A DNA stretch of 58,773 nt, filler included, from Bipalium vagum (lineage: Eukaryota): the NCBI GenBank assembly GCA_037834085.1. It is 3 parts of 3 records of this genome, joined end to end, with 100 filler letters (N's around TTAATTAATTAA, not from the genome) between each part and the next. Parts side by side here need not be neighbours in the genome. Positions count along the whole stretch, not along the records: positions 1 to 22,710 come from JBBMKC010217798.1; positions 22,811 to 41,898 come from JBBMKC010010926.1; positions 41,999 to 58,773 come from JBBMKC010094566.1. One strand, 5' to 3'. The position numbers and the translations under genes are program-made. The notes beneath the pieces were generated by a model. It was not told where the DNA came from, searched no databases, and saw only the letters and a program-made list of their open reading frames with translations. Below are positions 18,785 through 58,773 of the stretch, piece by piece (positions within the stretch are counted from its first letter, which is position 1; each line of letters begins with the position of its first letter).

Positions 18785-20101
18785 TGTTAAGTTCCTAAAA
18801 AGTGGCTGATTTTAAGTTTAAAAGATCAAACTTGGGCTTTTAGGTGACTTAACAAAGTACTTAATATCAGAAGGATTTATGGATGAACGTTCAGGCAGAA
18901 AAATTAAAAATCACTGTCACAATAGACGATCAAATAAAAATTCAAATGAACTAAGAGAACACAAATTTTTTTAAAATATTTATTGGCAAATCTGATTTTT
19001 AGAAGAACACTCTTTATGGGATTATCAAGCTTAGATATCTTTTGGCACAAACTTAGTTTAATGTGCAAAAGTCCTCAGCAATGTACAAGCTAGCGGCTGT
19101 GTAAATTGTAAAAATAAAAAAGAAGAAAAAGGAAAAAATAAAACTTTATTTGATTCTTGAAAGCTTTGAGCACTTATTTAGAAGAGTTTTTAGTTAATAA
19201 TATTATTAGGTTGTAAAGAAACAAATGGCGGTTTTTAACATCTAACTTTAAAGGAACACATGACAGCTTAAACAAAGTTTTATTTATCAAAATAGAATCC
19301 GCCAGACTGTACACACTTCTCCCAACGATATAAGAAAATTGCTCAAATTTGGGAGTCGTCAATTATTATTCAAATGCCTACAAAATTATAGATATTAATT
19401 ATTTATAAAATTTTTTGTTGAAATACCTTTTTTAAAAATTTACGCTTCAATATGAAAACAAATTTATATTAATAAAATAAAATTTCCTTTATTAATTCAT
19501 ACTGCAAAATTAAGTTTCATAAACCGCCATTAATTTCTTTACAACCTAATATTATCAAGTCAATCGGTAAAGATTGCTTGATATTAAATAATATATTTAA
19601 TAATAAAATAAATTGCTGTTTTAAAGTTCTTACAGAGTTTATAAAATGAAAAAAAAGGTTTCTTACTAAATTCTATACCTAATAATTGTTCACCACGTCT
19701 TGAAATGTTCTAGGATAATTCGTCCTTGAGAGTGTTCTCTGCTGAATTTTTGCTTATCTCTTTTGTATTTCTCTTTGTGATTTAACGAGCCCTTGTTGAG
19801 AATTATTGTACCTGCTTTTACTGTTTTTCTTGAGTTTAAATATAAAAATGTTGTTATAATTTCTATTTTTAAAAACACATGATTTCTATTTTTATAAATT
19901 CATATAATTTTATTTACCTAAATTCTATTTTTGGTAACACATTATTTTATATACATTTATTTCTATTCATAGTAATTTCTATTTTTTATATTTGTTTTTA
20001 TACAAATTTGTTTATTTATGTTTTGGTAATAATTTATAATTAATATTTAATAAATAAAATATCAATAATAATAATTATTATTATTATATTTATCCTTAAC
20101 T
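18785..20101. mobile_element. LTR-like element: module A at 18785-19180, possible decayed module B arm to about 20100
   Basis: Starts TGTTAAGTTCCTAAAAAG with a terminal hairpin closing at 18854 and aligns clearly with 56918-57570. The right part has TATAAAA near 19640 and TTGTTGAGAAT near 19793 (compare TTGGTGAGAAT at 48523). The right boundary is uncertain. Confidence 0.65.
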
Positions 20102-21739
20102 TGATTATCCCATAATACAAAGATAAAAATAAAAAATCACAAGAAGAATTGTTCATCAAAAAGTAAGAAATGTCATTATTTTGGGATACTCCACACAGTT
20201 ACTGTTATTAATATTGAACTTTTAATACATATGCCTAAGAGAGACACGGGCTTTCTTTGTTTTATAATTTTAAGTACAAATCTGAAATTTTCCAAATGAT
20301 AATAATATAAAGCCATTGAAACTATTCTCTTTAAGGAATACCAATAAGTATTTTTGATTATTATTATTGATTAGATAACAAAAATAAGCGAAGCTTTTAT
20401 TGGTTTTTATATTATTCAAATTATCAACTATTGTTAATTTCTTTAAAATAATTAATTTTCTCTGGCAAATATTTCCATTCAGCGTAGATACGTTTTTCCA
20501 CTACGATTCCATAACCAAATTTACCATTTTAGTATACTGTTTAATATCTGGGATTATATTGCGAGCATAAACTCCACATTCTGTTGATTGAATTGGGATT
20601 TGGCCAAAGAAAGGAGATTATGTGTATCAAAATCTCTTAACTTTATTTTAATAAGTTTTTATCAGTTACCTCTTTCTAATTATAAATTATTAACATTTTT
20701 AAAGTTTATATTAAAAATATTAAAATTTGAATGATGATAAGAGCATAATAATATTATAATATAAATAATAATAATGGTAATGTTAATAATAATATTGATA
20801 ATAATTTTGTATTTAGTTTATTTTCATACATTTACTTCATTTGATAAATTATAGTTAATTTATAATAATCGTATTAATTAATTATTTATTATTTTTTTCA
20901 TTTTCTGTTAAGACAAACTCTGGATCAATTAAATCTGACGCCATTTTTAAAAACAAATCAAAACACAAAAAATTCAAATACAAAAACAAACAAAAATTTC
21001 TGACAGCATAGGTAACAGATCCAAAATTCTTAAATTAAATTTTTAATGAAATGCTAAAAACTTTTAAAAATATTTTGACAAGGAATATTAAAACAAAAAA
21101 ATTAAAACATTTAAAATTACCGAAGTAAATTAATTCTAATTATTTTTCTGTTTCGATATATCTTAACCAGTTATATATAATAAATTCCGTAACACTTAAA
21201 ATTTTAAATTAAAAGAATTTTCCTTTTAGCTTTATTAATATTTCTTTTTTGTAATAAATGAATCGATAGTGCCGTAATATGTTATTAACTTTCTGATTGT
21301 AATTTCTCTTTCATTTTCAGGGAGAAATACTTTGTGATATTGAAGAATTGGCATGACAATCTGGCAAAGTTAATGAAAAAAAATATTATCTGCATTTCAT
21401 ATGGTATATTTTTGATACAAATTATTTCCTACTTTTCAATTTTCTGGCTTATCAAAAAATAATCAATCAAATTACAAAAAATAATTCATTTTCTAAATAA
21501 TTAACCAGTATATTTATTCATTTATTAAAAAATTAAAAGAATTCCTATAAATTTTTTATGTAACGATATTTTAATGAAAATAAAATATGTTTAATTATTT
21601 TCATACGATTTTTGAATAATTGCGGAAAATAAAATTTTTACGAATAATGTTTGGTAATTAAGAAAATTTATAAATAAAATAACTTTATAAGATAATATTC
21701 AAGTCAAATTGATCTTTCAATAAAAGTTTCAGAATTATG

Positions 21740-58400: not shown

Positions 58401-58773
58401 TGTTAAGTTTTAAGACCTAAAAAGATAATATCAGATGAAAATGAAAATGATTGTTAATATTTAATCGGGTTAAGAAGATCGATAGTGGACTTTTTATGTT
58501 TATTGGATTAAGAATATCGATAGTGGACTTTTTAGGAACTTAACATAAAATATATACAAATTCAGAAGAATTTAGTGCGCGTACGTTCGAAGTAAAAATC
58601 CGAGTGACAATAAAAATGTTGATTACTAAATTTGAACCTTTTAAACTTTTAAACAAATATTGATTATAAAACCTTTTAATTTTTAAACGATCAACTGAGG
58701 CTAACAAGTTGTTTTATAAAATATATTTTTATATAAATCTGACAACTTTATTTTTTAATACAATTTTACTTTT
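58401..58773. mobile_element. LTR-like module A (subtype 2) running off the window end
   Basis: Colinear with 28033-28398 over its whole length, with the terminal hairpin closing GGAACTTAACA at about 58545. Confidence 0.8.

Follow-up and report, generated by a model that had tools for sequence, protein, structure and literature searches.

A repeated non-coding module of Bipalium vagum is the 3' half of a Ty3/gypsy LTR and carries a candidate tRNA-contact block

The window analysed here is a 58,773-nucleotide stretch of Bipalium vagum DNA (26–30% GC), made of three joined contig stretches (1–22710, 22811–41898 and 41999–58773) from a fragmented eukaryotic assembly of 441 Mb. It contains six copies of a non-coding module in which short conserved motifs follow one another in a fixed order, raising the question of what kind of element the module belongs to and what its motifs do. 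The original prediction, cis-elements of a retroelement of an unrecognised family, holds in its first part; the family itself is of a recognisable kind, the module being part of a Ty3/gypsy LTR that is Burro-like. It is highly probable that the module represents the 3' LTR half of a tRNA-Trp-primed, env-carrying, Burro-like Ty3/gypsy element, the blocks of which likely act in the reverse-transcription leader.

The repeat unit and its ends

Re-reading the window placed all six copies at the predicted coordinates with the motifs in the predicted order. The terminus TGTTAAG occurs at 18785, 28033, 56918 and 58401, and inverted at 58288. The inner arms of the terminal hairpin lie at 18847, 28159, 56970, 58236 and 58538, and the TCAGAAGG-type block lies at 18867, 28183, 47430, 56991, 58215 and 58562; the core and TATTTA were also confirmed. 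As had been described, the copy at 58401 is cut short, its contig ending there, and the copy at 47430 lacks the terminal hairpin, which two of its relatives carry at that very place. Whole-module alignment of the six copies was poor and was set aside. Genome-wide, first-look searches returned 2363 candidates for the 28033 copy and 1404 for the 18785 copy, with the best 40 matches 83–100% and 87–100% identical, respectively. Exact matches to a 15-nt block pattern number 1042, against 28 for the reversed control. These counts are far above chance; the six copies belong to a large family of repeats.

When genome copies are compared, homology begins sharply at TGTTAAG and ends at CTCCACA. This second terminus lies 0.6–1 kb beyond TATTTA, which had been mistaken for the end of the module. 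On the element strand the unit reads TGTGGAG...CTTAACA, and most copies are 1.0–1.6 kb long. Among 35 two-ended units of 701–2094 nt, a set that includes two LTRs flanked by a polypurine tract (PPT) and some nested mis-pairings, a 4-bp target duplication is exact in 16 and has at most one mismatch in 24; shuffling gave a mean of 1.3 exact 4-bp flanks and a maximum of 5 in 1000. Duplications of 3, 5 or 6 bp were not found in the same 35 units. The suggestion that the 60–145 bp hairpin forms a separate small TG..CA unit was not borne out: in 50 cases, none had a 4-bp duplication flanking the hairpin itself.

The TGTTAAG end adjoins CCA in 87 pattern matches compared with 14 in the control, and the two-base spacer TT plus TGG is common to 45 of these 87 ends. 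On the opposite strand, the first 20 CCA-adjacent places fetched all have the sequence CTTAACA-TT-TGGTGAGCCCGACGTGAT or one close to it, and many then continue into gag. This PBS differs from host tRNA-Trp by a median of 2 mismatches in 18, and from other tRNAs by at least 6. A PBS at the opposite end of the unit was rejected: the 17 matches there are unrelated and have no sequence in common. The host tRNA-Trp gene was located, as were two loci with tRNA-Trp-derived fragments whose 3' end fits the element PBS better than the intact gene does; the true primer may be another variant of tRNA-Trp. Of four matches to a PPT directly before TGTGGAG, three loci were examined, and in all three the last internal ORF lies upstream of the tract. 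The 5' and 3' LTR junctions were seen on different contigs of the fragmented assembly.

From the PBS, the PPT, the sharp ends and the duplication together, we conclude that the module corresponds to only the 3' half of an LTR, in minus-strand orientation. The functional strand, on which the PBS and gag lie, is opposite to the one on which the module had been read. The TG...CA termini with a short duplication, the PBS and PPT, and the Pol order PR-RT-RH-IN are those of Ty3/gypsy elements, and it is virtually certain that the six copies are LTRs, solo or truncated, of a high-copy family of this group. The unit could also be read as a non-autonomous TG..CA DNA transposon such as a Ginger-like MITE, or as an unknown non-coding element, given its TG..CA ends, 4-bp duplication and lack of an internal ORF. 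That reading is scarcely credible: no terminal inverted repeats extend beyond TGT..ACA, and the PBS, the PPT and the linkage to gag and pol contradict it.

The features of the LTR copies are collected in Table 1. Only 18785–20195 is a whole solo LTR, with flanks CATT and CAGT matching at three of four positions; the other five copies are truncated. Solo copies are likely inert recombination leftovers. The insertion within the 18785 LTR is related to mariner ends near 37984–39253 and 39826–41002. A pogo/Tigger-type transposase (DDE_1) at 56040–56917, with about 20 relatives in the genome, is interrupted by the 56918 LTR. We rejected 56918–58288 as one two-ended insertion because what follows in intact pogo copies does not resemble the right flank. 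Elsewhere in the window, 51797–51880 is the start of another TG-initiated repeat (TGTTACG...), probably of another LTR family, which is also inserted in two of the genomic LTR copies (L006 and L035). A 140-bp direct repeat, 74% identical, occupies 51138–51277 and 52554–52693 at a spacing of 1.4 kb, and a proteasome beta subunit exon lies at 53954–54481.

Table 1 LTR copies and their parts in the window
Position	Strand	Feature	Remarks
18785..20195	-	Complete solo LTR, subtype B1	TGTGGAG at 20195, CTTAACA at 18785
18785..18854	-	Terminal hairpin, predicted U5-IR stem	LTR 3' end plus inner arm
18867..18874	-	CCTTCTGA block	Exact complement of host tRNA-Trp nt 39–46
18881..18895	-	Predicted U5-leader stem block	Predicted partner: leader immediately past the PBS of full-length elements
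19039..19105	-	B-type core	Two covarying hairpins, 19082–19105 and 19039–19071
19072–19078		CTGAGGR	Between the B-type core hairpins
19110..19180	-	TAAATA (TATA-like), AATAAA and U-rich tract	Likely promoter/polyadenylation region
19209..19546	.	Unrelated MITE-like inverted-repeat insertion	Within the 18785 LTR; limits approximate
28033..28747	-	Truncated LTR, subtype A, 3' half	Hairpin 28033–28166, tRNA block 28183–28190, core 28443–28474, TAAATA 28598
about 28196–28212	-	Leader-pairing block of the 28033 copy
47349..48058	-	Divergent A-like LTR fragment without terminal hairpin	Limits approximate; tRNA block 47430–47437, core 47774–47804, TAAATA 47928
56918..57705	-	Truncated B-type LTR within pogo-type transposase	Far limit approximate; hairpin 56918–56977, tRNA block 56991–56998 (1 mismatch), core 57421–57487, TAAATA 57563
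57700..58288	+	Inverted truncated LTR, third (C-type) lineage	Abuts the 56918 copy; hairpin 58229–58288, tRNA block 58208–58215 (1 mismatch), core about 57938–57972
58401..58773	-	A-type LTR 3' end	Cut by contig end; hairpin 58401–58545, tRNA block 58562–58569 (1 mismatch)

The internal region

The order of parts, pieced together from natural fragments on separate contigs, is LTR, PBS, gag, an extension, a fusion glycoprotein, one or two protease-like plus ankyrin units, PR-RT-RH-IN, a transmembrane ORF, orfX, orfY, PPT and LTR. Linkage to gag-env-ankyrin-PR-RT-RH-IN was shown, as were the LTR termini, the 4-bp duplications, the PBS and the PPT. The internal region is about 13–15 kb long, as estimated from fragment spacings. 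Its gag has four CCHC knuckles (zf-CCHC), ankyrin repeats are also present, and the PR-RT-RH-IN order comes from loci L225, L261–L265, L267 and L268. The glycoprotein, with 1206 first-look candidates in the genome, matches Monjiviricetes_fusion (PF24664, E = 1e-82), a mononegavirus type. One frame of 1054 aa (L266) holds the glycoprotein, protease-like and ankyrin segments together. Upstream of the glycoprotein, SUMO-like (PF11976, E = 0.037) and Bcl-2 (PF00452, E = 0.015) matches fall below the cut-off, with an Atlas lead of 0.76 beside them. BIR, MATH and dUTPase domains had no match in the part of the ORFs that was scanned. The nearest database proteins are unnamed (53% for Pol, 38% for the glycoprotein).

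Copies vary in content. The glycoprotein is absent from some (L160 and L267) and pol from another (L149). Derivatives occur without pol (L149), without env and RT (L160), or without env and ankyrin (L267), the PBS or pol being intact. The protease-like and ankyrin unit between env and pol is a tandem duplicate in some copies and missing in others (L261 and L266). Downstream of pol, orfX (L160:8691–9599, C15724) has no Pfam match, and its Atlas lead (0.90) points to DEDD/RNase T exonucleases; DEDDy ORFs are known in rotifer LTR elements. A second membrane protein follows the integrase in frame (L235:49–2751 and L160:7031–8270). It has no Pfam match, and shows a signal-like segment, about 300 aa and a C-terminal hydrophobic stretch. 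At one locus (L153), a repetitive KR-RFFRP..RRF ORF resembling a peptide precursor lies about 3 kb past the PBS, and a ribosomal-protein-like ORF lies beside a truncated element.

Conserved blocks of the LTR 3' half and leader

The conservation had been described as short blocks in freely drifting spacers. This applies between lineages; within a subfamily, conservation is near uniform (0.92–0.93 in blocks, 0.87–0.88 elsewhere). In the last 400 nt of the LTR, groups A or C are 0.57–0.60 identical to other groups, compared with 0.55–0.58 after shuffling, and groups B1, B2 and D are 0.64–0.72 alike. CCTTCTGA is the best-conserved block across lineages. In a comparison of five groups (26, 26, 13, 10 and 7 copies), with group C filtered on the CCTTCTGA motif and groups B2 and D hand-picked, the only 6–7-mers with at least two G/C found in half of the copies of every group are pieces of CCTTCTGA.

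On the element strand, the TATTTA and purine tract of the original prediction become TAAATA, AATAAA and a U-rich tract, which in both subtypes cluster upstream of the core at a distance of 40–140 nt. This cluster is likely the promoter/polyadenylation region, judging from its motifs, and in the part of PMC3601003 consulted such a cluster before U5 is the usual metaviral layout. Downstream of the core, too, AATAAA is present, in 23 of 40 A copies and 39 of 46 B copies.

The core was aligned in 37 B-type copies, drawn from the 46 left after 16 of 62 regex matches had been discarded as non-LTR. Paired cells make up 94%, against 28–47% in slid controls. Both sides have changed in 9 of 23 pairs, a covariation counted in the B-type only and resting on few sublineage splits. 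One-sided changes give G.U pairs on the element strand, which fits the element strand as the functional one. The hairpins may serve packaging, dimerisation or translation, although this is a guess. We considered whether the core is a self-cleaving, hammerhead-like ribozyme (CUGANGA), since B1 copies have CTGAGGA followed by a stem. This is very improbable, as no GAAA follows the stem (stem II in the hammerhead) on either strand and an Rfam search returned four weak matches, all below the gathering score.

At the LTR end, the inner arm pairs with the last 8 nt at a distance of 64–104 nt in 24 of 37 PBS-bearing ends, a count biased upward by pre-filtering of the set for a loose inner arm; two controls each gave 0 of 27. 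In six of the inner arms A has been replaced by G, which still allows a G.U pair when the element strand is folded. The terminal hairpin is likely a U5-IR-type stem of the retroviral kind, as these pairings suggest. Closer to the core lies the GAACGT / GCGCAC block; in 24 of 31 copies, it is here that the leader sequence directly following the PBS finds its best partner within the last 400 nt. B-type blocks pair less well with A-type leaders (-6.8 versus -11.5 kcal/mol), and the contrast is small for A-type blocks with B-type leaders (-10.7 versus -12.7 kcal/mol). In predicted folds with the PBS held open, the U5-leader stem forms with P > 0.5 in 21 of 29 and the U5-IR stem in 26 of 29, and the CCTTCTGA block is mostly unpaired in 25 of 29. 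The U5-leader stem would thus close a junction holding the U5-IR hairpin, a free PBS and a mostly unpaired CCTTCTGA. In ASLV, U5-IR and U5-leader stems are arranged around the PBS.

An internal partner had been proposed in which AAATCTGA pairs with TCAGA. The folds lend this no support, the mean pairing probability being 0.01 in A (n = 2) and 0.06 in B (n = 9), and exact AAATCTGA is present in just 11 of 45 copies. CCTTCTGA does match the primer. Its complementarity to nt 39–46 of host tRNA-Trp, noticed first and tested afterwards, is perfect in 18 of 35 PBS-bearing ends and has at most one mismatch in 28. Of 33 host tRNAs, tRNA-Trp is the best for the 8-mer; tRNA-Arg(TCG) and tRNA-Val share most of it, with at most one mismatch in 21 and 19 of the 35 ends, respectively. 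The median pairing energy with tRNA-Trp is -11.4 kcal/mol, against -4.5 for shuffled sequence. Pairing with the T-arm (PAS-like) is not above shuffle (-5.9 versus -6.4). Co-folding with the tRNA cannot hold the PBS and block pairings together, as the helices cross, and its low values were set aside.

We regard the CCTTCTGA contact with tRNA-Trp 39–46 as probably real, with moderate confidence. CCTTCTGA could instead be a DNA- or protein-level site (for a transcription factor, Gag or integrase) or take part in intra-RNA pairing, the tRNA match being coincidental and the LTR identity the same. Consistent with coincidence, no relative with a switched primer, and so no primer-switch covariation, was found among 20 fetched regions, and a distant relative (L297) has a Trp-like PBS and no CCTTCTGA block. 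Nine gag-bearing loci added one further Trp copy with the block and one block without a PBS. The adjoining CC(A/G)TAAA stretch is also conserved. Against coincidence stand the 8/8 match to the very tRNA that the PBS names, the best of 33, with an estimated chance near 0.5% (about 50 tRNA windows / 4^8 x about 6 blocks), together with the mostly unpaired state predicted for the block and the poor showing of its intramolecular partner TCAGA. On balance, coincidence seems unlikely to us.

A different reading accepts the contact and places the block in R rather than U5, at both RNA ends, with the tRNA contact serving minus-strand transfer instead of initiation. The frequency of AATAAA downstream of the core would allow this, and HIV U3 and Ty3 offer known cases of strand transfer bridged by a tRNA. 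We find it quite improbable, given that the TAAATA, AATAAA and U-rich cluster stands upstream of the core in the usual pre-U5 layout (PMC3601003, as far as consulted) and the block is just about 75–120 nt from the LTR end.

Under the preferred reading, an initiation role in U5, the conserved blocks likely work within the 5' leader RNA, preparing it for reverse transcription. The primer tRNA-Trp would bind the PBS by its 3' 18 nt, the anticodon stem would open, and tRNA nt 39–46 would then pair with CCTTCTGA; a contact of this kind has been proposed for HIV-1 nt 142–148.

Relation to known systems

An unexplained non-coding repeat is now an LTR of a known kind of element; what would be new in detail is the tRNA-contact block. 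The CsRn1 clade shares the tRNA-Trp PBS and 4-bp duplication (PMC2582038) and the 5' end TGTGG (PMC3601003), according to the sections consulted. Membership was rejected on the Gag motif, which is CHCC in the CsRn1 clade whereas the element here has CCHC knuckles, is much larger and has env upstream of pol (PMC2582038, same sections). Troyka, as described in the accessible part of PMC12440569, does not fit.

Gene order and env class match published descriptions, and so point to the Burro / GAG-ENV-POL errantivirus architecture. Assigned on this basis, the family is very probably Burro-like and compact. Burro / GYPSM1 are giant gypsy-like planarian retrotransposons with an internal region of up to 25 kb, in the excerpted account of PMC6431247. 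That account also gives the shared features: several CCHC knuckles, ankyrin repeats, PR-RT-RH-IN, very high copy number and an env of mononegavirus type that lies between gag and pol in the same frame. The SUMO-like and Bcl-2-like domains of Burro correspond here to weak matches in the right places, and its BIR, MATH and dUTPase domains to no match in the ORFs scanned (PMC6431247, in part). Burro is larger than the element here, which has 13–15 kb internally and LTRs of 1.0–1.6 kb. In comparison with the same partial account, the element has four knuckles, an extra transmembrane ORF and a possible DEDD exonuclease after pol. The literature searched describes neither a primer nor an LTR RNA structure for Burro; Grohme 2018 and its supplements, Repbase and Sacco 2022 may give a PBS.

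HSV/gB-type GAG-ENV-POL errantiviruses are reported from Platyhelminthes, Nematoda and Bryozoa in the portion of PMC13524379 consulted, and share the gene order and env class. By eye, the glycoprotein here resembles the Smed_errantivirus ectodomains in that portion motif by motif, number 4 most. The six Smed errantivirus entries have no LTR or PBS called there, whereas both are defined here, with tRNA-Trp. The present analysis thus supplies termini, primer and leader structure, absent from that published planarian GAG-ENV-POL table as consulted.

The retroviral PBS domain, in the parts of PMC3185550 and PMC1865047 consulted, shares a stem closing around the PBS and a hairpin at the U5 end. A further likeness is the U5 block complementary to the 3' strand of the primer anticodon stem plus the variable loop. 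In contrast, the element is of the gypsy lineage and not Retroviridae, has no T-arm/PAS support, and its contacts are predicted. HIV-1 nt 142–148 have been proposed to contact the anticodon-stem 3' strand and variable loop of the tRNA, and deletion of this contact had no detectable effect in one study (PMC3185550, as excerpted). If the contact with tRNA-Trp is real, strong selection would be acting, in a gypsy element of an animal, on extended pairing between primer and template at the anticodon stem, and this would provide independent evidence for an interaction of debated role in HIV-1.
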